The notes: generated by a model not told the origin, from the sequence alone. Positions 9,835 to 33,349 are shown, counted from the stretch's first letter. The stretch: DNA of 64,000 nucleotides from a virus (IMGVR_UViG_3300047320_000132:3101-67100), one strand, 5' to 3'. Program-made: numbers and translations.

Positions 9835-9894
9835 GGTGTTATTTTAAAAGCAAAAGCCTCCCGAAGGAGGCCTTGTATTTGAATCGTTTATACA

Positions 9895-10344: not shown

Positions 10345-10348
10345 TTAA

Positions 10349-10795
10349 TTACTCCGCAGCGTCTGCTGCCTTATCTGCCGCCTTGCGGCCCTTCTTTGCT
10401 ACGCCATTTGCTTCTTCTGCAGTCTTACCAATTGCTACCGAAACTGCTTCACCTGACTTTTCTATTTCTGCGTTACGGCCAATTGATTCCGTACGTGAAG
10501 TGCTCTCTTTCGGAGCGTCAGTTGACTCTTTTAGTTCATCGGCAGTCATACCGCGATACGAGTCCACTTCGATAATCGGAGTCGGGGCTTTAGGCAACGA
10601 GCTTACGTCCGGTTCCGACGAATGGACTTCAGCCCATTCTTTGTTAACTGCGTCGATCACATCTGGATGTTCCAGATCCGATTCCATGATTTTGGCGTAG
10701 CCGCCAACCTTGATTGAAATGTAACCCGCTTTCAGAACCAGACCGGTAGCCAGTTTGTTAACGAGGTAAAAATTCTTGAATACGACTTTTGACAT
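10349..10795 (-). CDS. Hypothetical virion-region protein with acidic/low-complexity C-terminus
   Basis: ORF co-oriented in the structural operon; aggaa SD. Confidence 0.6.
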   Translation of the reverse strand: MSKVVFKNFYLVNKLATGLVLKAGYISIKVGGYAKIMESDLEHPDVIDAVNKEWAEVHSSEPDVSSLPKAPTPIIEVDSYRGMTADELKESTDAPKESTSRTESIGRNAEIEKSGEAVSVAIGKTAEEANGVAKKGRKAADKAADAAE

Positions 10796-10824
10796 TTGTC
10801 ATTCCTTTCTTAAGAGTTTGTAGT

Positions 10825-11133
10825 TTATTGCTTATTGTACATTTTGTCAATTCTGGCCAGAATCTTATTGTTCTGATATTGCATGTATTTATGCAAGCCT
10901 AGAAGACCGCCAGTCAAAGCAACACCTCCACCAACGCCAAGTTTTACACGATTCTGAAATGTCCTGCCATTGCTGACCTTTGCCTTACGCGAGGCGCGGG
11001 TAGCCGTTAGACCTGTGACTTTAGCTTCATTAAGCACACGTGCCTTCGTAGCCCATTCTTTGGACGTTTTGCCATGTACCGAATCTAGCATGTTAATAGT
11101 CTTGGATAGGTATCTATTAAATTTACCTGCCAT
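10825..11133 (-). CDS. Small basic head protein with glycine-rich hydrophobic tail (probable start MAGKFNRYLSK)
   Basis: The 5' extension to 11304 overlaps a plus-strand promoter and gene; FNRYLSK resembles the NKYLEK tag. Confidence 0.55.
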   Translation of the reverse strand: MAGKFNRYLSKTINMLDSVHGKTSKEWATKARVLNEAKVTGLTATRASRKAKVSNGRTFQNRVKLGVGGGVALTGGLLGLHKYMQYQNNKILARIDKMYNKQ

Positions 11134-11242
11134 GTTGGTTTCCTGTAATTTACAGACGTATTTTAACAGAGAAGACGAACCAATGAAATTGGTATAAGAA
11201 GTATAGAAACACCCGTAGTCTATAACTCTTCCAGGAGAGACC

Positions 11243-11512
11243 ATGAAGATTAGCGAGATGACAAACTTTGTAAGCAGAGCGCCTTGGCCTATGGTCGTGT
11301 CCATAGACAGGTGGGGGGAGAAAGATCCAGAGATAAAGAGGAAGATAGTAGCGGTAGATCGTGCGTTGAGTATGAACTACGGGGATAAAGTTGTAAAGGC
11401 ATTGTTAGAAGAGTTGTTTGACTATGTAGAAAAACGGTATCTGGTAAATAGAAAACAGATGGAATCTAAAGTAGTTATGTTCCTGGCTGACAATAGGAAG
11501 AAATCAGCGTGA
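11243..11512 (+). CDS. Hypothetical protein
   Basis: TGGTATAAG at 11190, aggag SD. Confidence 0.65.
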   Translation: MKISEMTNFVSRAPWPMVVSIDRWGEKDPEIKRKIVAVDRALSMNYGDKVVKALLEELFDYVEKRYLVNRKQMESKVVMFLADNRKKSA

Positions 11513-11571
11513 GAGACCCGTCCCGGCTAGTACAGCGGGATTGCCTTTTACAAGTAAATAAGGAGAGTATT

Positions 11572-11700
11572 ATGACTGACGAGAAAAGTGGGGATCACAG
11601 CGTTTTGATGGGTATTCTCGGAATCATATTGCTAGTTGCTTTATTCGGCAGGAAAGAAGAGAAAAAAGATGAAGACAATAAATCCTCGACACCTAAATAA
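11572..11700 (+). CDS. Small single-TM protein (MTDEKSG...)
   Basis: aaggag SD; VLMGILGIILLVALFG. Confidence 0.6.
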   Translation: MTDEKSGDHSVLMGILGIILLVALFGRKEEKKDEDNKSSTPK

Positions 11701-11710
11701 AGGAGGAGGT

Positions 11711-11878
11711 ATGCTGACGCAAGAAGATATGAGAGATATTCGTCAGACGGTTGCCGAAGAAAATACAAAGGCTTTTGCCGCAGGGCTCATTTCAGGAACA
11801 CTCTTACTTTGCATAAGTATTATTACCCTTGCGTACTTGGACTCCAGAAATACAAGAGCGATAATTACACGACTCTAG
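11711..11878 (+). CDS. Small single-TM protein (MLTQED...)
   Basis: aggagg SD; AFAAGLISGTLLLCISIITLAYL. Confidence 0.6.
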   Translation: MLTQEDMRDIRQTVAEENTKAFAAGLISGTLLLCISIITLAYLDSRNTRAIITRL

Positions 11879-12004
11879 TAAGCAGGGGAAAGTCCCGCTA
11901 GTACAGTGGGCTTTTTTAGCTTCCAGAAATGAGAAAAGCCAGGCATTTAACCTGGCTCGTCTTAGATAGGACCACCTCCTCTCGAAGGCTTCCAAACACT
12001 GGGT

Positions 12005-12898
12005 TTAGAAGTTTAGAACAACTGCACCGTTCACGTTACCGATACCTGCACCTACAGCTTCGTATGCGTGGAATTCGATAATGTCTGCTTCAGTCTTCAG
12101 GAAGACCGTAGGAGCTTGCAACTCATAGAACTGACCTAGGTAGTTCTGCGGAGCAAACACAAGTGCTTGGTTCGTCGGGAGGATGTTAGCCTTGTTCGTC
12201 GTGATGATCTTGTAACCGAAGAACGTATCGAGCGTACCTTCACCACGGAACAGATCCGAAGCGGCAGGCGAACCCACGTCAGTTGCGGCAAAAGTCAGCA
12301 GATCAGCATACATCGATTGCGTCATAAGGATACAACCAACCGGCAGCTTATTCAGAAGCATGAACTTAATACCAGCCATCAGGTTAGCTTTCGTGAAGCC
12401 ACCACCGATGGTGTGAACATTGCTGTTCGCCGTAGCGATTGACAGAATGTTGTTGTAAAAGTTTACGTCTTCTTGCTCTTGGATATCCTTAACGCTGTTT
12501 TCCTGCAGGATCGTGCGAATGTCGGTACGATACGTAGCGAGTTCGAACTTGCTCTTGCGGAAATCTTGCGACATGATCTTTTGGAAAGTCACCGGATAAC
12601 GTGAAGTTTTCCAATAACGAATTTCCGGACGGCCCAGGAACGGAGCAGTAGCTGCAACCGAATCCGGTTCTTTTTCAACGATAACCGTCGGTTCTTCCGT
12701 CAGTTGGCGATCCAGCTCTGAAGCTGTGATTTGAACCGGAGTAAGAATCTTACGGGTAAAGCCGTCTTCACGAAGCTTCTGACGTACGAAAGCTGACATA
12801 GCAGCTGAAGCTTCTTTAGTGTGACCTTGGTCAATCTTGTCGAGGAAAGATTGATTCAGGAATTGTACGTTTACGGTTTCTGTCGAATATGCGCTCAT
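12005..12898 (-). CDS. Major capsid protein (HK97 fold)
   Basis: 297 aa after decoration/scaffold/protease genes; LREDGFTRKIL, IRYWKTSRYPVTFQKI, EDVNF, YEAVGAGIGN pattern. Confidence 0.8.
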   Translation of the reverse strand: MSAYSTETVNVQFLNQSFLDKIDQGHTKEASAAMSAFVRQKLREDGFTRKILTPVQITASELDRQLTEEPTVIVEKEPDSVAATAPFLGRPEIRYWKTSRYPVTFQKIMSQDFRKSKFELATYRTDIRTILQENSVKDIQEQEDVNFYNNILSIATANSNVHTIGGGFTKANLMAGIKFMLLNKLPVGCILMTQSMYADLLTFAATDVGSPAASDLFRGEGTLDTFFGYKIITTNKANILPTNQALVFAPQNYLGQFYELQAPTVFLKTEADIIEFHAYEAVGAGIGNVNGAVVLNF

Positions 12899-12912
12899 TT
12901 TAATTATCCCTA

Positions 12913-13335
12913 TTACGCTACTTTGATTGTAAGGTGAGCGGTTTCCGTCGTAGCAGCAGCCACAACGTCAAGTACGAAACCAATAACCGGGTCAGTAGTA
13001 CCGTTAGCAAGTGCCAGTTGACCACTCTTCACCGTCAGCGGCGAGCCAGGAGCATAAGCACCAGCTGCATAGTTCGAAACTTTAGCCAGGAAGTTACCCC
13101 AAAGAACAACTGCCTTACCTGCATACGCTGCCGAACCACTATCACCATTACCGACGATTACCAGGCCTACATTGTTTGACGCCGACGCACCGGTTTTATT
13201 AACAGTGTTATCGCTCTGTTTGGTAACCCAGTCACCATTTTGCAGAGTAGCAGCAGCTGTAATCGGTTCGACGCGCTCTAGAGAACCATCGTACGGCCAG
13301 CCACGGATGATCTCTGCGTTACGTTCCATTAACAT
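12913..13335 (-). CDS. Capsid decoration/cement protein
   Basis: 140 aa immediately upstream of the capsid gene; beta-tulip-like YAPGSPLTVKSGQL. Confidence 0.65.
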   Translation of the reverse strand: MLMERNAEIIRGWPYDGSLERVEPITAAATLQNGDWVTKQSDNTVNKTGASASNNVGLVIVGNGDSGSAAYAGKAVVLWGNFLAKVSNYAAGAYAPGSPLTVKSGQLALANGTTDPVIGFVLDVVAAATTETAHLTIKVA

Positions 13336-13421
13336 ATTTGTTTCCTTGTATATGTTTCTTTTTTAAATAAGCCAAGTAAAAGCATTGTTCAACTTGGCTC
13401 TAAATTTGTTCACAACATTCC

Positions 13422-13428
13422 TATTTTA
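13422..13428 (-). promoter_or_regulatory. Candidate late promoter TAAAATA (representative)
   Basis: Also at 5289, 8066, 9840, 18265, 20316, 23651, 26322, 38058, 44028, 47562 (minus) and 28856 (plus), each shortly upstream of a structural gene. Confidence 0.45.
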
Positions 13429-13467
13429 ATGCGTGATAAATGTAGTGTGGGAAAAAGGATAATTTTC

Positions 13468-13926
13468 TTAGTAATAACTCTGTGAGTTATTGCTTGAAGA
13501 AACTCCTTTAACTACAGCTCCTGTCAAAGCAGCTCCCCCGAGGGCGAGACCAACTTTATTACGGGCTTTAGTCGTTTTAAGCTCAGCTTGATCGATAGCT
13601 GGTTGGAGACTGTTAGCGTGAGCCTGAAGCTTGCTAGCGCGGTTTGCATTATGGGATGCGATGTCTTGGTTCAAAGGACGGGCAGAAGCTCCGTAAACGC
13701 GTCTAGAAGCGTCACCACCCCTATTATCCGCAAGACTCTTGAATACGTTCGCCTTGGCGGTTGCTCTATCAGCTAAAGAAGCTGTTCGAGATTGCGTTGT
13801 AGAAAGACCCTTAAATTCAGCGCCTGTCGCATCTTTAAGAACACCAGGAACAGTTTTAGCTACATTTTTAGCTGCCCCGATAATCCCTGCGATACCTGCG
13901 ATCTTTTCGAGGTATTTATTCATCAT
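13468..13926 (-). CDS. NKYLEKIA-tagged internal head protein
   Basis: MMNKYLEKIAG; basic; C-terminal GLALGGAALTG. Confidence 0.7.
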   Translation of the reverse strand: MMNKYLEKIAGIAGIIGAAKNVAKTVPGVLKDATGAEFKGLSTTQSRTASLADRATAKANVFKSLADNRGGDASRRVYGASARPLNQDIASHNANRASKLQAHANSLQPAIDQAELKTTKARNKVGLALGGAALTGAVVKGVSSSNNSQSYY

Positions 13927-13927
13927 G

Positions 13928-14524
13928 TTAACTCAGCATGAATTCAAGAAGTGGGTCGGTCTTAGGACGTGCTACACCTACTCCATTACCCATACCCCAC
14001 GGTTCTTCGATAGCCGATGCAACCTTCATCAGAAGCTCAGGTGAAACGCTTTGTAGTTCAGCAAGGTCTGCTTGGGTAAACTGGGCAGCAGAAGCAATTT
14101 TGTTAAGCTGTTCAGGCATATGAGTCACAGCTTCGATATGATCGAGTTCTGACTGATGTACGGAAGCTTGTTTTTCGATATCGCCCTTAAGGCCAGCGAT
14201 TTGCGTTTCAAGAGCTTCGATGTATTCAGCAGCCTTCTGCAGGAGTTCCACAGTAGGGTTCGATTCATCTGGAAGTGCAAAGCTCGTAAGTTCGGAAATG
14301 TTGAGGTTAGCAGCCTTGACCAGTTTCACAGCGTCTTCAGGGTCAATGCCTTTCATGGTCAAAGCTGAAGCGGCTTCTTTTTCCATGATGTGCTGAGCTA
14401 CTTGATAACGTGCGTCTTTATCGCTATAGCCAGCTTGTTTAAGATGTTCTACAGCAACTGCTTCCGGGGTCGAAAGACGAACGTCTTCCGCGTGTTGCAT
14501 AAGAATTGAGGATAGTTTAGTCAT
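13928..14524 (-). CDS. Scaffold-like head protein (probable start MTKLSS)
   Basis: Coiled-coil character, five K-x-A motifs; start overlaps the upstream stop codon. Confidence 0.6.
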   Translation of the reverse strand: MTKLSSILMQHAEDVRLSTPEAVAVEHLKQAGYSDKDARYQVAQHIMEKEAASALTMKGIDPEDAVKLVKAANLNISELTSFALPDESNPTVELLQKAAEYIEALETQIAGLKGDIEKQASVHQSELDHIEAVTHMPEQLNKIASAAQFTQADLAELQSVSPELLMKVASAIEEPWGMGNGVGVARPKTDPLLEFMLS

Positions 14525-14969
14525 TTTCGTCTTCACTGTGGACTCTGCTGAATCCAGCATTTTCGAGTCGTCTATTGTAATCTTTGGTGTTAGCGATACG
14601 GGCACCGAGACCTAGTCCAAGCACTGCACCGAGAAACTTATTCTTGAAAAGCCGTGACTTTCCAATATTTGTCAGTCTTGATGCGTGAGTTGCAATGGAC
14701 GGATCCAAATGCGCATTTGCAGCGGTACTAGCCAAATAAGGAAGCATAGTTGCCTTCGTATAAAAATGGCCTGCCGTTCCGCCTAGCGTAGCTCCACCTA
14801 GAGCCCAAGCCGCAGTTTGAACCGGATGGATGCCTTCTGCATTTTCAAGTTTTGCAAACTCTTCCCGATTCAAATGGAGCTTATCGACACCATACCAACT
14901 CTTATCATCTGGGTGCGGAGCCATCGCATACGACTCAGCTACCTTCTCAAGATACTTGTTTTTCGACAT
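14517..14969 (-). CDS. NKYLEKVA-tagged head protein with glycine-zipper helices
   Basis: MSKNKYLEKVAE; ALGGATLGGTAG and LGAVLGLGLG. Confidence 0.7.
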   Translation of the reverse strand: MSKNKYLEKVAESYAMAPHPDDKSWYGVDKLHLNREEFAKLENAEGIHPVQTAAWALGGATLGGTAGHFYTKATMLPYLASTAANAHLDPSIATHASRLTNIGKSRLFKNKFLGAVLGLGLGARIANTKDYNRRLENAGFSRVHSEDEND

Positions 14970-15357
14970 GTTTGTTGATCGCTTTATTTAGTTTAACACC
15001 GGCGTAATCAGCAGCCAAACTTGTAGCGCCAGTCAATGCCAAAAGTTTTGCATTATGCATATGTCCTGCACCTTCCCCTATAATTTTGGGAGAGAGTTTT
15101 TGCACTCCAAAACCTGTACCTGCACCGATACCTCCGATTATTCCAGTATCAATAGCGTCGTGTTTCCAATTAGATTCCTGTTCTTGAGCAGCTTTATGTA
15201 ATGCTGCGCTAAGAAGAGTTTTATCCCCGCGAACTAATTTTGAACCTGGTGAAACAACTTTAGATGGTTTCGCAACTTTGCCAAGTCTTGCGCCGACTCC
15301 CTTGGATGCCAAATTCGGAAAAGTCATTCCTGCAATTTTTTCCAAATACTTATTCAA
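14947..15357 (-). CDS. NKYLEKIA-tagged head protein with glycine-zipper helices
   Basis: TTG start with ggag SD; GIIGGIGAGTGFG. Confidence 0.7.
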   Translation of the reverse strand: MNKYLEKIAGMTFPNLASKGVGARLGKVAKPSKVVSPGSKLVRGDKTLLSAALHKAAQEQESNWKHDAIDTGIIGGIGAGTGFGVQKLSPKIIGEGAGHMHNAKLLALTGATSLAADYAGVKLNKAINKHVEKQVS

Positions 15358-15431
15358 TTATTTTCTCCAAGAAAAAAACCCCGCCCGTAATGTTGTACAG
15401 AGCGGGGCCTTAATTTAAGTCAGACTACAGA

Positions 15432-16691
15432 TTAATAGCCGTACAGTTCGTTCGATTTAGCGTTAACCATTTCGATTGCGCTGTCGAAATCAACGCCGTT
15501 AGCGATGAGCATATCGAGAGCAGCCTTCTTTTCACGGCCAACAGCGTATGCACCAGCAGCACCGGCAGCAGCAGCGCCAGCACCCAGATGAACAGCCTTG
15601 TTGTTAGCCAGAGCCTTGAACGAGCCTTGGGTAGCTTGGGCCTTAACGCGGTTAGCGTCAAACGCTACGCCATTAGCAGTCTTCTTAGCAGCACGGCCTA
15701 CATGTTCAGCAGTCGTTGCAGCCTTACGGGCAGCACGAGTTGCTGCACCACCACCGACCGAACGTGCAGCTTCGTTAAGCATCTTTGCAGCGCCAGAAGC
15801 AGCAGCAACCTTCGTAAGCTCAACAGCTTGGTCGAAATCAAAACCAGCAGCTAGGAACGAGTCAAAAGCGGCTTGCTTGACTTGCGTTTCTTCTTCTTGT
15901 TCGAGTTCAAACGCAGCTTCTTTAACCAGGTTCACAGCGGCGTCGAAGTCGAAGCCTTGGCTAACGAGTTCAGAAACAGCTGCAGCCTTTTCTTGTTGGT
16001 CAGCATCGACCCAACCCGTAACACCACCTTGGTTAGGAGTCTGAGCAGCAACTTGTGCGCCTTCTTCCTTAGCAATGCCAGCAGCGGGGTTTTGATCAAC
16101 CGGAGCAGCACCATGAGCCATAGCATCTGAAACGATTGCATCGAAAATTTGGTTGATAGTACCACCATTACCACGACCATCCGTACCCGGTTGGTTTTGG
16201 ATAATGCTATCTTGTTCTGCTACTTGAGCAGCCAGGTCTACCTGGGTCTTGTTCGGAACACCACTGGCAATGCCATTCATGGTGTTTTGGTCACCGACTG
16301 AAGCCAGCTTCTCAAGAAGAGCTTCGGCCAGAGCCTTACCTGCGTCAGCAGCTTGTTTGTTCATAGTATCCTCTGTATTAACTTGATCAAGTTTAATGGA
16401 TGCAACTTTTTGCATTACTTCTTTAGCCAAGGCGGCACCTTTTGCAGCTGCTTCCTTAGTTTGTTCGTCGTCTTTCTTCTTGTCGTCTTTTTGTTCGACG
16501 GCATTTTCTTTCTTAGCAGCTTGGTCGGCTTTGCAAGCAGTATCTAGTTCTTCATCTGCTTTACAAACTGCCGTCTCGGCTTTTTCTTCATCTTTCTTTT
16601 CATCCTTCTCTGACTTTTCGCTGGCGGACTTAGTAAGACCGGCGCTTTTTTCAAGATCCTGGATGAGATCATCAAGACTTAGATTCATCAT
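15432..16691 (-). CDS. Major scaffolding/core protein
   Basis: Charged coiled coils, about 11 K-x-A motifs, repeated GFDFDxA(V/I) units; lies between protease and capsid genes. Confidence 0.65.
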   Translation of the reverse strand: MMNLSLDDLIQDLEKSAGLTKSASEKSEKDEKKDEEKAETAVCKADEELDTACKADQAAKKENAVEQKDDKKKDDEQTKEAAAKGAALAKEVMQKVASIKLDQVNTEDTMNKQAADAGKALAEALLEKLASVGDQNTMNGIASGVPNKTQVDLAAQVAEQDSIIQNQPGTDGRGNGGTINQIFDAIVSDAMAHGAAPVDQNPAAGIAKEEGAQVAAQTPNQGGVTGWVDADQQEKAAAVSELVSQGFDFDAAVNLVKEAAFELEQEEETQVKQAAFDSFLAAGFDFDQAVELTKVAAASGAAKMLNEAARSVGGGAATRAARKAATTAEHVGRAAKKTANGVAFDANRVKAQATQGSFKALANNKAVHLGAGAAAAGAAGAYAVGREKKAALDMLIANGVDFDSAIEMVNAKSNELYGY

Positions 16692-16753
16692 GACTAATAT
16701 CCCTTTTTGAACGAGGCCACTGGATTGTAGCCTTTTGAAAATCTTCAGTCAAT

Positions 16754-18259
16754 CTATTTATTCTGAATCAACTTTAGCATTGCCGACTTGGCTAATTTGT
16801 AAGTCAATTTGTAGTCAGAAGCAGATTTAACTAAAGGTATTTTAACACCATCTGAAAGCTTGTTCAATTCCTGCTCTTTCATTTTCTTCTCAATTACTTG
16901 AGTAATGAACCACTTTGCAGCGAGAGCAGCACCGCCGATTGCTACGATGGCATTGAACACACGCAAGAGTTCAGACTTTTGTGGAGCGTTAGCCAGATTC
17001 TGTTCTCTGAACCTTTCATAAACCGTCGGTTCGATATGATGACCATTTCCGCTGTACCCTACGTTTGTACCTTGCATATATCCATACATCGATGCTTGCT
17101 TATTCATAGCTACACGGCTTTCTACATAATCCGGCAGATACGAAGAATCTTCCATGTGTGGAAGAAGCGCATGCACAATTCCTATATTAGGTTCTGTAAT
17201 TTCACCGAAGTCACGATCAAAGTCCATCAGTGCAGAAGTACCTGATTTATTCACATAAGCAGCAGCCATAGGGCCGATGCCCTTAGCTTCGTCACCGAGG
17301 ATCTTGCGACCAATCAGTTCTGCCAGAAAACCCAATGAAGGGCTAATACCAAGATGACCCAAGGTGCTAAGAACTTCATTAAGCTTATAGTTTCTAAGAA
17401 CGTCGATAACGTCACCTTTCGGATCAGAAACTCGTGATACAAGATTATCAAAACTAGGATCAGCAGATACAACATCACCATCGACCTCTTTTAGTAATTC
17501 TGATAGCTTCTTTAACGACGCGGCTTTGTGCATCGTAATTTCAGATAGGCCAGCCATCATGGCTTCATCTACAGAACCAACAACTTCAGCTGTTGATGCA
17601 ACTTTCTGTAGAACAGAACTCGTTACGTCGGCAGGGCGGAATACGATAGAGATATCGAAGAATCTAAGCGGAGCCAGATTCAACGCCATAACCTTGCGGC
17701 CATCTGGATAAATTCTGCCAAGCTGTTCGCTCAAGTGTTCACAATACTCTTCACGAGTCTTAGCCTTGTTACTGCAAATACTGCAAACGTCGAATGGAGT
17801 ACGGCAAGCCATAGAAGTCTTAGGCCAATCACCGCTTTCGATCTTGTCGACGATGTCAGGGGCCTTGTCATTCCACAGTTCGGCAATAAGCTCAACACGA
17901 TGCATTCTATCGTTATAAACGGAATAGATAACACGCCCGATAGCAATTTCAGGGTTCTTGTTTACGTGGTTGCGGAAGATATGGGCGGGTGAAGTCTCAA
18001 AGGTATTGTGATAATCAATGAGATTCGATTCAGGGAAATAGTCTGCGTTACGGTTGGCACCATAGAATTCACCCGCGCCCATAGCGAGGATGTGCAGATA
18101 TGTCTTTCCATGAATAGGAGTGATTTTGGATGCGAATTGTTGAATACGAGAATCCGCAGCCTGTTTGATGAGACTGCCTGTAAGGTCTCTGTTGTCAAGA
18201 ATCGTAACCTGGGGTTCGTCTTGGTAAAAAGAAGAGGTATCGATCAGTTTTGTTAGCAT
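16754..18259 (-). CDS. Prohead maturation protease (HK97/assemblin fold) with C-terminal extension
   Basis: RNHVNK (His), KTSMAC (Ser), DISIVFRPAD; CSIC...C...H Zn motif; synteny. Confidence 0.75.
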   Translation of the reverse strand: MLTKLIDTSSFYQDEPQVTILDNRDLTGSLIKQAADSRIQQFASKITPIHGKTYLHILAMGAGEFYGANRNADYFPESNLIDYHNTFETSPAHIFRNHVNKNPEIAIGRVIYSVYNDRMHRVELIAELWNDKAPDIVDKIESGDWPKTSMACRTPFDVCSICSNKAKTREEYCEHLSEQLGRIYPDGRKVMALNLAPLRFFDISIVFRPADVTSSVLQKVASTAEVVGSVDEAMMAGLSEITMHKAASLKKLSELLKEVDGDVVSADPSFDNLVSRVSDPKGDVIDVLRNYKLNEVLSTLGHLGISPSLGFLAELIGRKILGDEAKGIGPMAAAYVNKSGTSALMDFDRDFGEITEPNIGIVHALLPHMEDSSYLPDYVESRVAMNKQASMYGYMQGTNVGYSGNGHHIEPTVYERFREQNLANAPQKSELLRVFNAIVAIGGAALAAKWFITQVIEKKMKEQELNKLSDGVKIPLVKSASDYKLTYKLAKSAMLKLIQNK

Positions 18260-18285
18260 ATTTATATTTTACAGGCAGTTACTAC

Positions 18286-18606
18286 TTAAATACGAATGTA
18301 TTTATTTTTGGTACCAGCAGCTTTCTCTTGTTCGGGCAACTTAACGTGAACATTAACGCTCTGTCGTTTCTTCAAAGCCTCTGCGATATCTTTCAATTGA
18401 TCTAAAGATTTACTTTCCACATCCGCCATGTGATTTCCTCGATGTTTGCTCTCTATACCATTGGCTAGATTCGCAACACCTAGCCCAAGACCGGTAGCAG
18501 ACATACCTAGACCAATCTTGGAGGTTGTTGAACTTCTCTTCCAGCCTTTAGCGAAGCTCTTTCCGAACTCACTTAGACTGGCAATTTTCTCTAGGTATTT
18601 ATTCAT
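18286..18606 (-). CDS. NKYLEKIA-tagged head protein
   Basis: MNKYLEKIAS; IGLGMSATGLGLGV. Confidence 0.7.
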   Translation of the reverse strand: MNKYLEKIASLSEFGKSFAKGWKRSSTTSKIGLGMSATGLGLGVANLANGIESKHRGNHMADVESKSLDQLKDIAEALKKRQSVNVHVKLPEQEKAAGTKNKYIRI

Positions 18607-18608
18607 GG

Positions 18609-19148
18609 TTAAACAAACGCTTTAGGATTAACCGAACCGTTGTCACGATAGCGGCCTTCAAGATCCGTAAGACTCTTAATAGTCATCAGATCGATACCGT
18701 CACCTTGAACTGCGTTCGTAAGGATAGATTGTAGCAGATTCGGATCCACTGCAACCAGCGGAGCAAATCTGTAAATCGTATCAGCATACTTTTCAACCTT
18801 AGCAGGGTTCTGATCACGAAGGAACGATGACGAAGCAACAGCATGTTGCAACGACTTAAGGAAGCGTTGGTATCTGAACTGATCCGTTACGAAACGATAA
18901 CCAATCATTGCACCGCCAACCGCACCATGAGAGACGATACCACCAATGCCCTTACCAAGTTGGCCAGCGATATTGTCTGTGAATTCACGACTGATGTCTT
19001 GCTCTGAACGTGGGTTAGCCGCTTCTTTTTCCAGAAGTGCTTCTTTTTCCATCAAAACATGAGTAATGAAGCCTGCTACGAATTGGTCAGCGAGATCTTC
19101 ATTGCCAGCGAATTTTTCAAGACCTAGCTCTTTAACTTTTTCTAACAT
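18609..19148 (-). CDS. Internal head protein
   Basis: LEKFAG, LEKEAA motifs; glycine-rich hydrophobic helix. Confidence 0.6.
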   Translation of the reverse strand: MLEKVKELGLEKFAGNEDLADQFVAGFITHVLMEKEALLEKEAANPRSEQDISREFTDNIAGQLGKGIGGIVSHGAVGGAMIGYRFVTDQFRYQRFLKSLQHAVASSSFLRDQNPAKVEKYADTIYRFAPLVAVDPNLLQSILTNAVQGDGIDLMTIKSLTDLEGRYRDNGSVNPKAFV

Positions 19149-19173
19149 TTGAATTGTCCTTTGTTTACTTTAA

Positions 19174-20274
19174 TTAATCACGTTGAAGAGCTGACCATAC
19201 GTCATTGCTTCTTCCGGTATGTGAATCTGTACCCGGGTCATACAGAGCTGCATCCATAACTGGGTTAGCTGCTTTCCATACTCCCTTCAGAGCAGAACCT
19301 GAAGTCTTGCCGACAGCCTTGGTAACTGCAACCGCCTGTGACTTTTCGCCAGCACCCATAATAGCTTGGGCATTCGTTTTAACACTTTTTATTGCTGCAT
19401 TTCCGACGGCTTTACCGGCGTCAATTGGAGTCTTTGCAACTCTGCCAGCTACGTAACCCGCCGCATAGCCAGGAGCACCAATAGTTTTGTTAACTACGTT
19501 CTTTGCACCGGCACTAACATTATTCATCGTATTAACGAATGAATTTGTTTTGATACCTTGAGTCGTTTCTGCAGCTTGCTTTTGAAGACTCGATCTTTCA
19601 CGTTGTTCACGAACCAGTTCACGAGCTTGCTTATATAGATTCGAGAAATTAGTAACGTCCTTCAGTTGGGCTTCTTTGAAAAGACCAACACCTGCGAGGT
19701 CACGATACTTTTGAACTGAGCCTGAAACAAGGACCGACAATTCTTTGAATTCCTGTTCGCTCGTTACACAAGCCAACTTATCCATCCACTTCTCATCCTT
19801 GCCAATAGCCTTAGCCGTCTTGACAAGAGTATCAGCAACAGTAATGCTTTCTATTTGTAGACGTTCAAGTGATTCTTTATTAGCGGAAGCTTCTTTTACG
19901 AAGTAAGTAATCTTTTCACCGAATTCCAGTTCACGCATTTGATATGCAGAAGCTGTCTTTTCGATACTTTTACTTTCAACGCTAATGGTTGCTGCCACTT
20001 TTTCCTGGAAGTTATCAGGAAGCGTAGCCGAAGCCATGACTTCAGCGTATTTTGCAAGTGGGAATTCTACCGTACGGTCTTCGCTCAACTGCAGTACTTT
20101 CAGATAAGCGATGTTGTTTGTTGATTCAACAGCACGCTTAACTTGTTCTTCATTAAGTTCATAAGCTGCCGCTTGTTTAGCCAAGCCAACGCTTAGTGGA
20201 ACTTTGTTATTTAGAAAATCTTCGACCGCGCTGATCGAAAGATCCCTAAGTTGTTCTGGCGAGATGTTTGCCAT
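19174..20274 (-). CDS. Internal head/core protein
   Basis: About 7 K-x-A motifs; lies in the head operon. Confidence 0.6.
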   Translation of the reverse strand: MANISPEQLRDLSISAVEDFLNNKVPLSVGLAKQAAAYELNEEQVKRAVESTNNIAYLKVLQLSEDRTVEFPLAKYAEVMASATLPDNFQEKVAATISVESKSIEKTASAYQMRELEFGEKITYFVKEASANKESLERLQIESITVADTLVKTAKAIGKDEKWMDKLACVTSEQEFKELSVLVSGSVQKYRDLAGVGLFKEAQLKDVTNFSNLYKQARELVREQRERSSLQKQAAETTQGIKTNSFVNTMNNVSAGAKNVVNKTIGAPGYAAGYVAGRVAKTPIDAGKAVGNAAIKSVKTNAQAIMGAGEKSQAVAVTKAVGKTSGSALKGVWKAANPVMDAALYDPGTDSHTGRSNDVWSALQRD

Positions 20275-20276
20275 GT

Positions 20277-20438
20277 TTATCCCTTGCGACCTTTTTTGGT
20301 CCCTTTAGTCATGTCTATTTTAGTCTTGAGACTCATGAAAGGCTTACTCTTTGGAGCCTTAAGGGGCTTCTGACCAGCTCTTACCTGAAGCTGGCCTCCT
20401 TTCTTTCTAGCAGCGATTTTCTCTAGGTATTTATTCAT
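20277..20438 (-). CDS. 53-aa highly basic NKYLEKIA-tagged peptide
   Basis: Manual translation MNKYLEKIAARKKGGQLQVRAGQKPLKAPKSKPFMSLKTKIDMTKGTKKGRKG; ATGA overlap with the upstream HNH gene; below the ORF-track cutoff. Confidence 0.75.
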   Translation of the reverse strand: MNKYLEKIAARKKGGQLQVRAGQKPLKAPKSKPFMSLKTKIDMTKGTKKGRKG

Positions 20439-28851: not shown

Positions 28852-28919
28852 GTTTTAAAATAGTCTAGACGTGGTATAATGCGTCTAGGCTTTTTTTAGC
28901 TTTTCAAAGGCACTTTAGA

Positions 28920-30188
28920 ATGTTACAACCCAATGATGAATTCCTTTTCACCCGGCAACGTCACGAAGCTGATGTAATGGGCCTTCACTACGATCTCCGA
29001 CTAGTTCATGGAGATAAGGCGTACTCCTTCGCAACGCTCAAAGACATGCCTGGTCCAGGTGAAATCATTGCAGTCTACGAACAACCTGTTCATGACAGAG
29101 CGTATGCGCTAAGCAAGAAAGTGGTTATCCCTACTGGCCAATACGGTGCAGGTGTTACTCATTTAGATTGGGTTAGAAAAGCAATCGTAGCTCCACACAG
29201 TACAGAAACCTCGCTGGTTATATTCACCAAAGATGGTCAGAAGTTCCTGCTTAAGAAATCTCCGACTAAAGAAAATGAAAAATCGTGGATTTTCAGGAAC
29301 ATTACGGGAATGGGTAAAAGTCAGAACCCTTACCTTAAGAAAATAGAAGAAGGTATGGATAAACAAGCATCGTTTATCGGCGGTGCAATCGCTACTCACT
29401 TACTTCAAAATGTAGCTACGAATGTGGCTTTGGGAAAACGTCGTGTGTCACGCTATCTGGCCAATTCGTTTGCCCAAGGCGCTCACGGTGTCGTAGATAA
29501 TAGCATCAAGGCAAGAGCGCTGCGTACTGCACTTGGCGCAACCCTGCCGGATATCTCAGTGGCTCATAAGTCGATGCATGACTTAGGTCGTGCTGTAGGT
29601 GGACTTACTGCCCATGCAACTCCTCGCCAACGCGTAGCTGTTAGGATGCTTACGCAAGGTCGCTTCAACGATCTAAAAAAATACGATTTGCATAGAGACC
29701 CTGTAGTACAAGCAGTTCATAATCATGTCAGCAAACATCTCGGTCTGCCTTCGCTTGACCATGTTATGAGTAAAGCCGATGACGTGGCTAAGTTATGGAA
29801 AGATAAAACTCATCCGTTGCTTTCCAATATTGCAACCAATATTACGAAAGGTGCAAAACCACAGGGCAAGCATTTTGTACCGGGGCATCTTACTGCCAAA
29901 CCAGGTTTGACGGGCGCAGTTGCAAGCTTTGCTATCGATCCCGCTGCGGGTAGTTTAAACACAGCCAAAAATCTTATGGCTAGTAAAAAAGTGGCGAATA
30001 ACAAGTACGGTAAGAAAGTGGTTGATATGTTGAATAATCAATTTATCAAGAAACCGATTAAAGCTGGAGTGGAATCTGAAGGTCGTATTTCACAGCTAAA
30101 AAATAAGGCGTACAAGTTAGGGGTTAACCCTCTTTCAGCTCATCTAAAAAGAACATCGTCGGCGTTAACCGATGTTCTCAAGGATTAA
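28920..30188 (+). CDS. LigD-type 3'-phosphoesterase domain fused to a basic head-protein-like domain
   Basis: QRHEA..GLHYDLRL, VHDRAY, IPTGQYGAG; linker NPYLKKIEEGMDKQAS. Confidence 0.8.
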   Translation: MLQPNDEFLFTRQRHEADVMGLHYDLRLVHGDKAYSFATLKDMPGPGEIIAVYEQPVHDRAYALSKKVVIPTGQYGAGVTHLDWVRKAIVAPHSTETSLVIFTKDGQKFLLKKSPTKENEKSWIFRNITGMGKSQNPYLKKIEEGMDKQASFIGGAIATHLLQNVATNVALGKRRVSRYLANSFAQGAHGVVDNSIKARALRTALGATLPDISVAHKSMHDLGRAVGGLTAHATPRQRVAVRMLTQGRFNDLKKYDLHRDPVVQAVHNHVSKHLGLPSLDHVMSKADDVAKLWKDKTHPLLSNIATNITKGAKPQGKHFVPGHLTAKPGLTGAVASFAIDPAAGSLNTAKNLMASKKVANNKYGKKVVDMLNNQFIKKPIKAGVESEGRISQLKNKAYKLGVNPLSAHLKRTSSALTDVLKD

Positions 30189-30319
30189 TTCCAGCATATT
30201 AATACCAATATAGCAATCGTTATTATTACATCTATAGGATGATGTAATAGAATTTGAAGTAGTGACATGATAACCTCCAGGTTTAGTACATTACTTATAC
30301 CAATTTAGCACATAGGCAA

Positions 30320-31777
30320 ATGAATAAGTATCTAGAAAAAATAGCCCGGAAGCAGAAAAGCGATCTTCGTCCAAATCAGATTGACGCACTTGAGCATCTT
30401 GAAAAAGAGAAAGGTGTTGTCCTTCATCATAGCCTTGGTAGTGGCAAGACAAAAACGTTCCTTAAAGCGGTGGAACATTACCAGAACGAAAATCCGAAGA
30501 AACGAGCATTGGTTATCGCCCCGGCGAGCCTTGTTACTAACGTTGACAAGGAATTGCTCAAGCACAAGATCAACCTTGACAAGAATAGGCTTGACGTCAT
30601 GAGCTACGAGAAGGCAGTAAACGAAGCTCATAATCTTCGCAAGAACGATTATTCGATCGTAGTTGCCGACGAGGCTCACAGACTTCGCAATACGAATACT
30701 AAACGTACCAAAGAGCTTCGTGACATTATCAGCGGAGCGGATCGACGTCTTCTAGCTACCGCTACGGGTAACTACAATAAGCTGTCTGATATTTCAGCGC
30801 TCGTTAACATCGCTGCTAATGACGATGTTCTTCCTGAAGATTCTAAGAAGATGGAAGAGCGTTACACTAAGGACGAAATTGTCAAGCCTGGGTTTAAAGA
30901 ACGGCTTCTTGGTGCTAAACCTGAAGCTGTTAAAACACTTGACCGTCGTAAGGAACTTAAAGAAGCGCTTCAGCGGTATGTGAGCTATTACGATAGCAAG
31001 GATGATCCTGAAGCCAAAGATCATTTCCCTTCCAAGACTGAAAAGAACGTGGATGTAGAAATGTCCCCGGAACAGTTGAAGTATTACAAGTTTACTGAAG
31101 GTAAGATTCCGTTCCTGCTCAGAATGAAGATTCGTCACAACCTTCCGTTGGACAAGAAAGAGAAGTCGAGTCTCAATGCTTTCTCGACAGGCGTGAGACA
31201 GGTTTCCAACGGCTACAAGCACCTCAAGGCTGATGGCAAGGGTGAGTACTCACCTAAGATCCAAAAGGCCGTAGCGAGCCTCCAGGACGGTCTGAAGACG
31301 GATAAGAACTTCAAGGCTCTCGTATATTCAAACTATCTTGATGCGGGTCTGAAGGATTACTCTAAACGACTGCAGGAACTGAAAATTGACCATGCTATTT
31401 ACGACGGCTCCCTTTCACGTAAAGAAAAGGATGAATTGGTTAAACAGTACAACTCTGGTAAGAAGAAAATTTTGTTGATTTCTTCATCTGGTTCAGAAGG
31501 ACTTGACAGTAAAGGCACCAAGCGTGTACAAATTCTTGAGCCTCACTTTAACAAGAGCAAAATCAATCAAGTAGTTGGCCGTGCGGTTCGGTTCGGAAGC
31601 CATGACCATTTACCCAAAGAAGAACGCAAAGTAGAAGTTGAGCATTTTCACAGCGTACATCCTAAGCCGCTTTGGGGTAAGACGCCGTACAGTATCGACA
31701 AGTATCTGTCAGAGAATTCTGATACGAAGCAGGACCTGTTTGACGAAGTTAAAGATTTGATGAAGAAAGATGACTAA
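30320..31777 (+). CDS. SNF2-family helicase/ATPase, NKYLEKIA-tagged
   Basis: HSLGSGKT, DEAH, SGSEGLD, QVVGRAVRFGSH. Confidence 0.9.
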   Translation: MNKYLEKIARKQKSDLRPNQIDALEHLEKEKGVVLHHSLGSGKTKTFLKAVEHYQNENPKKRALVIAPASLVTNVDKELLKHKINLDKNRLDVMSYEKAVNEAHNLRKNDYSIVVADEAHRLRNTNTKRTKELRDIISGADRRLLATATGNYNKLSDISALVNIAANDDVLPEDSKKMEERYTKDEIVKPGFKERLLGAKPEAVKTLDRRKELKEALQRYVSYYDSKDDPEAKDHFPSKTEKNVDVEMSPEQLKYYKFTEGKIPFLLRMKIRHNLPLDKKEKSSLNAFSTGVRQVSNGYKHLKADGKGEYSPKIQKAVASLQDGLKTDKNFKALVYSNYLDAGLKDYSKRLQELKIDHAIYDGSLSRKEKDELVKQYNSGKKKILLISSSGSEGLDSKGTKRVQILEPHFNKSKINQVVGRAVRFGSHDHLPKEERKVEVEHFHSVHPKPLWGKTPYSIDKYLSENSDTKQDLFDEVKDLMKKDD

Positions 31778-31988
31778 TAAATACCTAACCAAAATTGCTT
31801 CTGACCTAGCTACGGCAGAGAAGAACGAAAAAGACGAAAACGATGATGTAAACAAGTATTCGGAAGAATTGAAGAAAGCCAGAAATCCGAAACTCGTCGC
31901 AGCGTTGAAGTTTGCGTTACCAGAAGAAAAACAACACAGGGCTAAATTTGAGGCTGCTGTTGCAGCTATCAAACAAAGAGATCACTGA
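31770..31988 (+). CDS. Half-ferritin (encapsulated-ferritin EncFtn-like), NKYLTKIA-tagged
   Basis: E-x6-Y-x9-P-x-L-x-A-x-L-x5-EEKQH matches EncFtn ferroxidase spacing without gaps. Confidence 0.7.
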   Translation: MTNKYLTKIASDLATAEKNEKDENDDVNKYSEELKKARNPKLVAALKFALPEEKQHRAKFEAAVAAIKQRDH

Positions 31989-33349
31989 TGAACAAGTACC
32001 TAGAAAAAGTAGCAACCGAACTTAAGGAACCAGCTAGCCCTGAGGGGCTTGGCTTTGACTTGTCTAAGGGCGATGAAAAGGAACTGTATAAATGGCTTAC
32101 AGCGGTGACTCTTTTTTCTAGACCTATTCAGCGTTCTGTAGCAGGTATGGCTGCAAAACATATGGCAGAACAGGGGTTCCACTCACCTGAAGCTGTTGAA
32201 TCAGCTGGTTGGGAAAATCTTCGTGACAACCTGGTCAAAGGACATTATGGCCGATTTGATGAATCCACAGCTACGACGATGCTTGCACAAGCAAGGCATC
32301 TAAAAGAGAAATACGGAACGATTGGTAATCTTATCGATAGCCGTACGCCTGAAGAGATTCGTGCTGAAATTCAAACGTTCCGTGGAATCGGTCCACTTGG
32401 AAGTCAGCTATTTGTCGAAGGTGTCAATCCGTATCTGGGTCAAATTCAAAAGCAAGCCTCTGCTGAAAACTATCAACGTCACAAATACGTTGAAGGTGAT
32501 TGGACTAAGCTTGAGCATCCAGTTGCATCAAAGAAATGGGACGGCGCTCACTTTATTTTGACAGTTCAGCCTGACGCTTCTCTTACGTTTCACTCACGTA
32601 GAGAGAGCGTTAAAGGCGGATACCCGGAGCGTTCTTCACAATTGCCTCACCTTGCAAAGCAGATGCCTGACTATATCGGTAATCAATTTGCAGTAGAACT
32701 TGTGCATACCGGACTTGCTAAATCCGAAACGGAATCACATCCGACGGTTTCAGGTATTCTGAATTCGCTTGCACCTCGTGCAATTGCAACTCAAGCTGAG
32801 AAGGGTCCAGTTAGAGCCGTGCTTATCGATGTCAAGAATCCCGATCTTGCTACATACAAGGATAAGATTGAGTACATCAAGAAATTCGAAAAGGATTTTG
32901 GAAATAACGAAGTGATGTTTGCACCTCACCTTGAACATGGCGTTGAGAATATCAACAAGTACCTCGACAAGATTAAAGGGGATAAAGGTGAAGGCTTGAT
33001 TGTTGCTGACTACGAACAACCAGAAACAGAATCAGTACGATACAAAGTTAAAAACTATGTGACATATAATCTGAGAGCACAGGGTCAGCAGCAGGAAATC
33101 GACATTAAGGGAAATCCTAAAGATAGTATGGGAGCTTTGTATCTATACGATGCTTCAGGAAAAATGGTTGGAAAGGTTGGAACGGGGTTTGATAGAGAAA
33201 CACGAATCAATGCACGCAAGCATCCAGAGATGTTTGATGGAAAATTGATCCAGGTTAGAGCGTATCCGCCAAGCGTACCGGGAGGCCAGATAAGATTCCC
33301 GGTCTATAACGGATTTGCTGATGGGGAAATTGACCGAGTCCATCTTTGA
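31988..33349 (+). CDS. lig: HhH-domain protein fused to ATP-dependent DNA ligase, NKYLEKVA-tagged
   Basis: HhH-like FRGIGPLG and YGRFDE; ligase KWDG, GEGLIV, YKVK, GKVGTGF. Confidence 0.88.
   Translation: MNKYLEKVATELKEPASPEGLGFDLSKGDEKELYKWLTAVTLFSRPIQRSVAGMAAKHMAEQGFHSPEAVESAGWENLRDNLVKGHYGRFDESTATTMLAQARHLKEKYGTIGNLIDSRTPEEIRAEIQTFRGIGPLGSQLFVEGVNPYLGQIQKQASAENYQRHKYVEGDWTKLEHPVASKKWDGAHFILTVQPDASLTFHSRRESVKGGYPERSSQLPHLAKQMPDYIGNQFAVELVHTGLAKSETESHPTVSGILNSLAPRAIATQAEKGPVRAVLIDVKNPDLATYKDKIEYIKKFEKDFGNNEVMFAPHLEHGVENINKYLDKIKGDKGEGLIVADYEQPETESVRYKVKNYVTYNLRAQGQQQEIDIKGNPKDSMGALYLYDASGKMVGKVGTGFDRETRINARKHPEMFDGKLIQVRAYPPSVPGGQIRFPVYNGFADGEIDRVHL

Follow-up and report, generated by a model that had tools for sequence, protein, structure and literature searches.

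Organization of the locus

The analyzed window, a stretch of 64,000 nucleotides, derives from an uncultured phage of ~180 kb. On the plus strand it carries four adjacent ORFs, which an ORF check confirmed to be real, as first noted. They encode a 422-aa protein with a LigD-type phosphoesterase (PE) domain, termed PE422 (28920-30188), a minimal SNF2-family ATPase of 485 aa (30320-31777), a tagged ferritin-like protein of 72 aa that appears to be variable cargo (31770-31988), and an ATP-dependent DNA ligase of 453 aa (31988-33349). A late-type promoter-like motif, TAAAATA, was found 64 nt upstream of the first gene (28856..28862, plus strand). The genome contains 23 copies of it, and 13 of these are positioned 12-93 nt upstream of minus-strand genes in the head and virion RNA polymerase (RNAP) region. 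Of the 25 copies in the complete relative G001, 14 were intergenic, with intergenic DNA making up 8% of the genome (binomial p-value of 1e-9). L001 and L003-L006 share the identical sequence GTTTTAAAATAG ahead of their PE genes. A terminator-like hairpin of 12 pairs with a T-run marks the end of the upstream gene (28862..28891, plus strand) and overlaps the promoter-like motif; in the relatives both arms differ, while the pairing is retained. No further terminator-like site was found downstream on the plus strand before position 34285. The four genes are best explained as a single operon of the late (virion) class.

Enzymes encoded by the operon

The PE domain occupies residues 1-135 of PE422 (28920..29324). 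Scores against LigD_N (PF13298) were 27.9-30.3 bits and thus below the cutoff of 31.1 bits, while the G001 ortholog was above it with 33 bits; TIGR02777 yielded 19 bits. Residues 4-125 matched the archaeal PE of PDB 3p43 (E 1.8e-5). The proposed catalytic pattern was recovered as H15, H23-Y-D25-x-R27, H58-x3-Y62 and G-x-YGAG at positions 73-78, with the His, Asp, Arg and Tyr residues aligning with those of 3p43. The residues that we take to be essential (His, His-x-Asp, Arg, His-x3-Tyr) are those of the Shuman laboratory's work. The PE domain is followed by the sequence NPYLKKIEEGMDKQAS (aa 136-151, 29325..29372, plus strand), an internal variant of the tag described below, and by a domain of about 270 aa, termed domain X (29373..30188, plus strand). 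In other phages domain X is a separate tagged protein: L119:7772-8632 and L078:216-1217 showed 37-44% identity to it, and a Pfam search for domain X gave no family match. Since these standalone homologs of the C-terminal 285 aa begin with a variant of the tag themselves, MTTTNPYLEKSAS in L119 and MSNRYIAHLEKQSS in L078, NPYLKKIEEGMDKQAS represents a true tag relic.

The SNF2 protein exceeded the Pfam cutoffs by far (SNF2-rel_dom 70.8 bits, Helicase_C 59.7 bits), matched PDB 1z63 with an E-value of 3.6e-12 and carries the motor motifs GSGKT (aa 40) and DEAH (aa 117).

The ligase consists of two parts. Its all-alpha N-terminal domain (32015..32425, plus strand) contains a helix-hairpin-helix (HhH) motif, FRGIGPLGSQLF, at aa 131-142, and was helical in the AF2 model with a pLDDT of 50-79. 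The earlier note had likened this region to base-excision enzymes. This was not established, as the evidence consists of just sub-threshold HHH_5 matches (E 0.003-0.1, in four of five homologs) and Atlas leads scoring ≤0.80; the region is more simply read as an accessory domain that binds DNA. The boundary to the core is formed by the junction motif NPYLGQIQKQAS (aa 147-158, 32426..32461, plus strand), whose place is taken in relatives by a full second tag, NKYLQKAA; untagged minimal ligases begin about 6 aa past this junction. The core itself, a minimal ATP-dependent ligase with nucleotidyltransferase and OB domains (32462..33349, plus strand), was modeled with a pLDDT >90. Its motifs I, III, IV and V are intact as claimed before: K183-x-D185-G186, E237, E335-G336 and K353/K355 show no or hardly any variation across 55 sequences. 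By sequence the family is divergent: there was no PF01068 (DNA_ligase_A_M) match in the Pfam search, OB_2 reached 17 bits, and PHROG 114 was matched at 2e-16. The fold agreed with Chlorella virus, LigE and T4 ligases, with matches to 2q2t, 6gdr and 6dt1 at E about 1e-13. Foldseek gave E 1.3e-13 and a TMt of 0.63 for 2q2t (Chlorella virus ligase), and a TMt of 0.73 for 6gdr (LigE).

The 72-aa protein showed similarity to Rubrerythrin in Pfam (E 5.7e-4; 20.7 bits, below the cutoff of 22.8) and had no significant match in a PDB search. The residues E23, Y30 and E53-x2-H56 were kept in three divergent tagged homologs (L028, L048, L093), and their spacing corresponds to that of the iron ligands of EncFtn (Glu, Tyr, Glu-x-x-His). 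The protein, called a half-ferritin, had been counted as a kit member, and this membership did not hold. Outside the window, only relatives with 99% identity to it have the gene, which is absent in L003-L006; a different tagged ORF takes its slot in L003, and none in L004-L006. The gene is variable extra cargo outside the conserved kit.

For the remaining three, the case for a single functional set became much stronger, as they occur fused in pairs in the relatives. PE-SNF2 fusions were observed in L003-L005, PE-ligase fusions in P0050, P0051, P0064, P0070, P0091 and P0092, and a tag-SNF2-ligase fusion in P0087. In L131 and L133 the PE, SNF2 and ligase genes adjoin genes for scaffold-like and tagged proteins.

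A shared tag, probably an address peptide

Three ORFs of the operon begin with a short peptide of the consensus M(T)NKYL(E/T)K(I/V)A and PE422 has an internal variant, which bears out the initial observation that all four neighbors carry the tag or an internal variant. It reads MNKYLEKIA in the SNF2 protein (30320..30346, plus strand), MTNKYLTKIA in the 72-aa protein and MNKYLEKVA in the ligase (31988..32014, plus strand). The internal variant NPYL...KQAS marks domain boundaries within PE422 and within the ligase, so that the ligase has both forms. In total, nine ORFs of the phage genome are headed by the tag, all within the head module or the PE/SNF2/ligase operon; in a complete 181-kb relative, seven N-terminal copies and one internal copy are confined to the same two regions. 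The tagged ORFs of the head module lie on the minus strand at 9562-9834, 13468-13926, 14517-14969, 14947-15357, 18286-18606 and 20277-20438. Within this module, the tag is found on small glycine-zipper and basic proteins encoded between the protease and major capsid protein (MCP) genes. In IMG/VR, the tag was present in 112 stretches from 71 contigs, and 166 of 208 copies were located 1-3 codons past an ATG. It heads 129 distinct proteins in 66 clusters, corresponding to about 66 unrelated protein families.

A chance origin of the tag is excluded: the degenerate DNA pattern of the tag had eight matches in the 131-kb record and none in the reversed control. That the common N-terminus might be a nucleic-acid feature that acts in translation initiation or regulation, or a repeat that arose by chance, and not a peptide signal, would be suggested by its position at gene starts alone and has next to no probability, as synonymous codons vary between the copies, with third positions changing freely, the upstream DNA is unrelated, and the tag also occurs inside the PE-SNF2 fusions of L003-L005 and at the C-terminus of the L006 PE (155 aa). 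The best explanation is an address peptide of the head-internal proteins of this clade, M-N-K-Y-L-E-K-[IV]-A, or NPYL...K-Q-A-S inside fusions. The residue following it varies (S, G, A, E, T, R) and is R or K in the SNF2 protein; consequently, it is unnecessary that every tag is cut.

Head module, prohead protease and putative cleavage motif

Six further tagged ORFs, scaffold-like proteins and the MCP (12005-12898) are encoded by the head module on the minus strand (9562..20438). The module also contains a prohead protease (16754..18259, minus strand) with a gp21/assemblin fold at aa 46-222. Using VIA-align, it matched T4 gp21 (5jbl) with Z 11.4 (rmsd 2.8 A, 130 residues aligned) and herpes assemblins with Z 8-11, the best herpesvirus proteases scoring 11.1-10.4 and unrelated folds ≤5.7; it also matches PHROG 18299. 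The catalytic domain is directly followed by an invariant VLQKVA-S, with K219 and A221 invariant in 14 homologs, and by a C-terminal extension. This motif contains the core of the tag, a hydrophobic residue-x-K-x-A followed by S, A or G, which is abundant in the scaffold-like proteins and precedes the mature MCP N-terminus (TKEA-S at about aa 28). The pattern Phi-x-K-x-A-[SAG] occurred 28 times in the 4,187 aa of the head module versus 13 times in the 33,766 aa encoded elsewhere (odds ratio 17, p-value of 6e-18). KQA[SA] was found nine times proteome-wide, namely seven times in head proteins and once each at the PE422 and ligase junctions. Head proteins of the cultured relatives Arash and Vibrio phage D181 were full of the same motifs. 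Because of its 17-fold enrichment in head proteins (scaffold-like proteins, MCP N-terminus, protease), the tag core is most likely the cleavage site of the prohead protease.

Proposed packaging and role of the enzymes and alternative explanations

As the tag of head-internal proteins is also found on the PE, SNF2 and ligase proteins, the phage probably packs a small DNA-mending kit in its capsid and delivers it with the genome. To our knowledge, no phage is known to do so. A virion destination of the operon products is supported indirectly by the tagged head proteins, the enriched tag core, the late-type motif and the detection of Gp217, the SNF2 ortholog of the cultured phage Arash, in particles, although this detection was not selective and Gp217 is untagged, as described below. 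We regard it as fairly probable that a loading and processing system similar to that of the T4 capsid targeting sequence (CTS) operates here and that a module for healing and sealing DNA ends forms part of its cargo. For cleavage, packaging, injection and a role in the next host, we infer the following course. The procapsid core would take up the tagged proteins, and the prohead protease would then remove the tag and cut the internal junctions. This would release the PE domain, domain X, the HhH domain and a minimal ligase that matches the free-standing ligases of other phages in extent. Kept inside the capsid, the pieces would reach the cell along with the DNA and the virion RNAP. There, the PE could convert blocked 3' ends (3'-phosphate or 3'-ribonucleotide) to 3'-OH, the ligase could seal nicks or ends, once even without ATP if pre-adenylated, and the SNF2 motor may travel along or clear the incoming DNA.

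Alternatively, the enzymes could work solely in the producing cell. Late in infection, and perhaps where packaging takes place, they would mend nicks and blocked ends of replicated or concatemeric DNA; the tag would recruit them to the procapsid or a common hub, with no delivery to the next host. A second DNA ligase was not detected, neither by PF01068 over cutoff in the 72%-complete record nor as an NAD-ligase in the complete relative, so that the ligase may serve replication also, or only. Late expression is compatible with clean-up before packaging, and in many related phages this ligase core lacks the tag, as in P0053, whose contig has the tag on other proteins. Against this, the tag is otherwise found on small head-module proteins, and the junction motifs of the enzymes match those of the scaffold, the protease and the MCP, which suggests exposure to a prohead protease that is active inside proheads. 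We therefore consider an exclusive role in the producing cell rather unlikely.

Even less credit is given to the SNF2 protein being mainly a partner of the packaged RNAP, in RapA-like recycling or in clearing host proteins off the DNA, with a secondary link to PE and ligase. The basis for this idea is Arash Gp217, to which the SNF2 protein is 39% identical in an alignment starting only at aa 16, Gp217 having no tag. The Gp217 gene comes directly after that of beta', its start overlapping the beta' stop, and virion mass spectrometry detected Gp217 in particles together with RNAP beta and beta', both among the top five proteins by abundance (PMC10585845). This detection was not selective, because 116 proteins including ribonucleotide reductases were listed for the preparation (PMC10585845). 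A RapA-specific domain was not found in the SNF2 protein by domain searches, and its in-frame fusions to PE (L003-L005) and to the ligase (P0087) also speak against a role mainly with the RNAP.

Comparison with known systems

The closest parallel is found in T4, where the CTS has the sequence MKTYQEFIAE (PMC8442874). It is located on IPI-III and Alt and removed by gp21. In both cases a peptide of about 10 residues heads unrelated, fast-evolving proteins encoded in or near the head genes, and the same genome encodes a protease of gp21 fold; five positions are common to both peptides (M1, Y4, E6, I8, A9). The cargo comprises small basic proteins and enzymes, with a PARP/ART-like tagged protein of a relative paralleling T4 Alt. 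The tag lacks the conserved Glu site of the T4 (L/I)-x-E type and ends with K-x-A instead, and cleavage would occur after Ala, K-x-A-(S/A/G), whereas T4 is cut after Glu. The tag would work like a CTS with a different motif. Unlike in T4, it is also employed inside fusion proteins or at a C-terminus, the MCP is small and HK97-type, a multisubunit RNAP is carried in the virion, and the cargo would include a DNA ligase, a PE and an SNF2 ATPase, none of which is known as a T4 head protein.

[quoted passage not shown] Common features, those of processing being predicted for the phage studied here, are the multisubunit RNAP packaged in the head, the processing of many head proteins at a short motif, a protease removing its own C-terminus, and paralogs with identical N-terminal propeptides containing the motif. 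However, this motif is A/S/G-x-E, no single tag is distributed across unrelated families, and DNA repair enzymes have not been reported among the ejected proteins. Herpesvirus assemblin (R and M sites) shares the protease fold (Z 8-11) and the order of protease domain, release site and scaffold-type extension. Assemblin cleaves between Ala and Ser in (V/L/I)-x-A|S, which resembles the phage K-x-A-S motif; for this eukaryotic virus, however, no cargo tag system is known.

The catalytic PE residues are the same as in bacterial LigD, which joins PE, polymerase and ligase for NHEJ, and in the archaeal PE (3p43, 3p4h). As in LigD, the PE is coupled to an ATP-dependent ligase, being fused to it in relatives of this phage. 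In contrast to LigD, the phage ligase is of minimal Chlorella virus/LigE size, an SNF2 motor joins as a third partner, the genes form a late operon with capsid tags, and a search for Ku and a polymerase domain found neither. In phage P1, the Dar system packs the methyltransferase-helicase DarB in the head as anti-restriction cargo. A virion proteome is available for P1 (PMC9024508). Other proteins are involved, loading proceeds via Dar proteins with no short shared tag, and ligase or end-healing functions are absent; the likeness would lie in packaging into the capsid a large enzyme that acts on DNA, has a helicase-type motor and protects the incoming genome.

Tag-bearing genes in the record and across IMG/VR

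The window spans bases 3101-67100 of an IMG/VR phage record that is 131 kb long, with an estimated completeness of 72%. Four adjacent, co-oriented ORFs were found on the plus strand, encoding the 422-aa phosphoesterase (PE) protein PE422 (28920-30188), a 485-aa SNF2 protein (30320-31777, N-terminus MNKYLEKIA), a 72-aa ferritin-like protein (31770-31988, MTNKYLTKIA) and a 453-aa ligase (31988-33349, MNKYLEKVA). As the earlier note had stated, all four carry the tag, an M-N-K-Y-L-E-K-[IV]-A-type peptide, or a variant of it, which is N-terminal in three and internal in PE422. Six more tag-initial ORFs lie on the minus strand (9562-9834, 13468-13926, 14517-14969, 14947-15357, 18286-18606 and 20277-20438), all inside the head-morphogenesis module. 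Beyond these nine ORFs no strict tag copy was found in the whole record, in which a reversed-pattern control gave zero matches. Since third codon positions vary freely and the upstream DNA is unrelated between copies, selection acts on the tag peptide. A literature search did not find the tag string in papers. The annotated 159-aa ORF at 10825-11304 (minus strand) probably begins at an internal Met (MAGKFNRYLSKT...); its counterpart in G001, a complete 181-kb relative, has 105 aa and the N-terminus MAGSFNRYLSKT. TAAAATA precedes the G001 ORF by 34 nt and occurs in the window at 11165. The window ORF would encode a tenth protein with a tag variant.

Using a degenerate DNA pattern of the tag, 112 stretches from 71 IMG/VR contigs were obtained, with 166 of 208 tag copies located 1-3 codons past an ATG. 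The tag heads 129 distinct proteins in 66 clusters, the majority of them small glycine-zipper or basic proteins; a ligase, an SNF2 protein and a weak PARP-like protein were also found. A few matches, for example a chaperonin-like ORF read by eye from the sequence, appear to be due to chance. In relatives, a tagged 434-aa protein (L080:6690-7991, minus strand) gave a weak PARP/ADP-ribosyltransferase match (E 3e-4) and is reminiscent of T4 Alt, and a tagged 632-aa protein (L015:1798-3693, minus strand) gave weak DnaJ and glycine-zipper matches.

Phosphoesterase, SNF2 ATPase and ligase

Residues 1-135 of PE422 constitute a LigD-type 3'-phosphoesterase domain, matched by the archaeal PE structure 3p43 (E 1.8e-5). 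With Pfam LigD_N the window protein scored slightly below and an ortholog in a relative above the cut-off. The LigD metal/catalytic pattern noted earlier (His, His-x-Asp, Arg, His-x3-Tyr) was intact. Homologs of the C-terminal 285 aa, here called domain X, are free-standing in other phages and start with a tag variant (MTTTNPYLEKSAS... in L119, MSNRYIAHLEKQSS... in L078); the PE422 gene therefore represents a PE domain fused ahead of a tagged protein. The PE protein of L006 has 155 aa, with NPYLKKVEE... at its C-terminus. Domain X, a 257-aa gene downstream and a 398-aa gene upstream matched no family in Pfam or NCBIfam. Identification of the 485-aa protein as a minimal SNF2 ATPase holds: both Pfam lobes scored well over the cut-off, and GSGKT and DEAH are present.

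The C-terminal ~295 aa of the ligase form a minimal ATP-dependent DNA ligase (AF2 model pLDDT >90), for which Foldseek returned the Chlorella virus, LigE, T4 and Rhizobium-phage ligases at E ~1e-13. Motifs I, III, IV and V, regarded as intact before, were invariant across 55 homologs. The N-terminal domain is helical with one helix-hairpin-helix (HhH) motif. Its HHH_5 matches were sub-threshold only, and the proposed resemblance to base-excision enzymes did not become an established link to glycosylases; a DNA-binding accessory domain would be the simpler reading. A tag relic (NPYLGQIQKQAS), of the same kind as the internal variant of PE422, separates this domain from the core, and a complete second tag, NKYLQKAA, occupies its position in the homologs P0004, P0006 and P0007. 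Untagged minimal ligases of other phages start ~6 residues past the junction motif. Cultured phages gave no match to the operon or to the ligase in DNA and protein searches.

Further variation was seen among the ligases. Within the nucleotidyltransferase domain, directly ahead of motif IV, lies a tag-like INKYLDKIKG (aa 322-331, window 32951-32980); most tagged ligases read have kept it, with divergence in P0008, and none of the untagged minimal ligases read contains it. In the tagged ligases P0009, P0012, P0013, P0015 and P0016 an unrelated ~150-aa domain (..RFxPDLxPxEMEELGVLAxQYYGKDP.., aa 1-150) substitutes for the HhH domain, and the same domain terminates a PE polyprotein (L131:2017-3294, aa ~290-425). 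Neither Pfam nor NCBIfam gave a family for it, and it may represent a further component of the repair module. P0069 (470 aa) has the reversed order, with the ligase core first, a glycine-zipper segment next and a tag-like MNQYLAKIEGY near the C-terminus.

The three enzymes were also found joined in pairs. PE and SNF2 form a single 643-aa protein in the relatives L003-L005 (ligase 85-86% identical), with the tag NVYLEKIA kept between the parts. Among the ligase homologs, P0050, P0051, P0064, P0070, P0091 and P0092 are PE-ligase fusions, while P0087 is a tag-SNF2-ligase fusion whose contig carries a PE polyprotein two genes upstream, with scaffold-like and tagged genes next on the same strand. 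These three independent pairwise fusions are strong evidence that PE, SNF2 and ligase form one functional module. The half-ferritin, counted by the earlier note as a kit member, is not part of it: the gene was found only in the window and in 99%-identical relatives, and its slot holds a different tagged 128-aa ORF in L003 and nothing in L004-L006. Its rubrerythrin match was sub-threshold and a PDB search gave no significant match; a Glu / Tyr / Glu-x-x-His pattern is conserved in three divergent tagged homologs.

The head module and a candidate cleavage site

The head module (minus strand) encodes an HK97-fold major capsid protein (MCP, 12005-12898) and acidic scaffold-like proteins (13928-14605, 15432-16691). 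Another of its products, 501 aa long (16754-18259), matched "head maturation protease" in PHROG. The portal gene is located further along (42103-44001). A structure model of the N-terminal 245 aa of the protease (pLDDT 79.5) matched T4 gp21 (Z 11.4 over 130 residues, rmsd 2.8 A) and, at Z 8-11, herpesvirus assemblins, compared to at most 5.7 for unrelated folds. A sequence search against the PDB gave no match, and fold comparison alone provided these relatives. Protease homologs adjoin tags on many of the 71 tag contigs.

Immediately past the protease domain, (V/I/F)(L/M)xK(V/L)A was found in 14 of 14 homologs, mostly followed by S. The 39,385-aa proteome contains 15 copies of [LM][EQDNK]K[IVLTS]A, 14 of them in tagged or head-module proteins. 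Phi-x-K-x-A-[SAG] was counted 28 times in the 4,187 aa of the head module and 13 times in the 33,766 aa elsewhere (p 6e-18), and KQA[SA] nine times in the proteome, with seven copies in head proteins and two at the PE422 and ligase junctions. The MCP carries TKEA-S near residue 28. The same motif is abundant in head proteins of the cultured relatives Arash (Salmonella phage) and D181 (Vibrio phage), and one basic D181 protein starts MDNVDTLLEKIAAKSKK. We infer that the prohead protease cleaves at K-x-A where S, A or G comes next, with predicted cuts after TKEA/VKEA in the MCP, after LQKVA/LEKVA in the protease and between MDNVDTLLEKIA and A in D181. The tag would then be a short propeptide ending in such a site, and the tagged proteins, kit included, would be substrates of an enzyme acting inside proheads. 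When the protease domain and ligase aa 1-45 were modelled as a complex, the score was 0.00, which carries no weight either way.

HNH-like ORFs were recognized by eye inside the head / polymerase module at 20435-20962 (HVDHIVPL...) and 26333-26815 (QVDHIVPL...), both on the minus strand. An ORF with a similar Cys-rich N-terminus (L131:3263-3901) sits between a relative's kit genes. These are probably homing endonucleases helping to shuffle head/polymerase and kit modules.

Promoter-like motifs

In the record 13 of 23 copies of (C/T)TAAAATA precede head and virion-polymerase genes by 12-93 nt. Of 25 TAAAATA copies in the complete relative, 14 are intergenic, with intergenic DNA making up 8% of the genome (binomial p 1e-9). 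Judging from the genes downstream, these sites would be late promoters. The sole plus-strand copy ahead of a gene in the window lies 64 nt upstream of the PE gene, where GTTTTAAAATAG is identical in five relatives and the motif shares sequence with the upstream gene's terminator-like hairpin. Downstream of the kit start no plus-strand terminator-like site was found before 34285. The extended -10-like TTGGTATAAG(N5)T occurs 40 times in the record, 39 of them on the plus strand and mostly preceding plus-strand genes (e.g., window 1597, 3641, 26838, 27583, 33360, 44091). It is probably an early or middle-class promoter read by host or phage sigma-RNAP; it marks a gene class other than that of TAAAATA. 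As TAAAATA precedes the PE gene and TTGGTATAAG marks the other class, the kit appears to be co-regulated with virion genes. The lone minus-strand TTGGTATAAG copy (30302) is antisense to the PE gene and directed into its 3' end. TGGTATAAT at 28872 was dropped as a promoter, being variable in relatives and located in a terminator-like hairpin loop.

Possible function and relation to known systems

The earlier observation of a tagged enzyme cluster was confirmed, and its interpretation as an injected repair kit was supported in part only. Tentatively, and as a possibility that we would not yet call probable, we propose that a clade of ~180-kb virion-RNA-polymerase phages uses an undescribed capsid-address code, NKYLEKIA, which is cut between A and S in K-x-A-S by an assemblin-like protease and is modular at N-termini, C-termini and between polyprotein domains. 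One conserved cargo would be a Ku-independent DNA end-healing/sealing machine of PE, SNF2 and minimal ligase, injected pre-assembled, which would repair or circularise the incoming genome ahead of phage gene expression and counter nicking or end-attacking host defences.

Action of the kit enzymes in the producing cell is a live rival, because no second DNA ligase and no Ku were found: there was no PF01068 match over the cut-off in the 72%-complete record and no NAD-ligase in the complete relative. An independent hint at packaging comes from Arash, the closest cultured phage (beta' 52% identical), whose virion proteome has RNA polymerase beta and beta' within the five most abundant proteins and includes the DNA helicase Gp217 (PMC10585845). 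Gp217 is the ortholog of the window SNF2 protein (39% identity, E 1e-114); the alignment begins at residue 16, and Arash is therefore without the tag. We regard this presence as supportive, not decisive, since the preparation listed 116 proteins (PMC10585845). The SNF2 protein may also chiefly serve the packaged polymerase. A clamp-binding or secretion signal was rejected for the tag, as the majority of tagged proteins are small head-module proteins. In Arash a single 1525-aa protein comprises beta plus the N-terminal portion of beta'; in the window (34319-41819, minus strand) beta/beta' is split (38442-41819, 34319-35482) by five inserted genes, one of which (36900-37997) has head-decoration/fibre-like PHROG matches.

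If true, the packaged kit would represent a new counter-defence class, directed at systems that nick DNA or attack its ends, as well as a new way of protecting linear incoming genomes. Tag and Ala-Ser-type processing code together would allow the injected proteins of a large uncultured phage clade to be predicted by a sequence rule, and foreign proteins could be loaded into capsids of tag-bearing phages with the tag as a portable handle. Phages inject polymerases, anti-restriction proteins and ADP-ribosyltransferases; we know of no description of a packaged DNA ligase or 3'-end-healing set. Herpes assemblins, which share the fold of the window protease, cut between A and S in (V/L/I)-x-A-S, and the processing code would illustrate herpesvirus-like specificity in a phage protease. 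MKTYQEFIAE, the T4 capsid targeting sequence (CTS; PMC8442874), has five positions in common with the tag. For the giant phage SPN3US, motif-directed processing of head proteins has been described, along with a protease that removes its own C-terminus and paralogs with identical N-terminal propeptides (PMC5694885). We rate the system described here as putative CTS-type capsid loading with an unusual cargo; its new elements would be the tag in a non-T4 clade, the Ala-type processing and a DNA-repair module as cargo.
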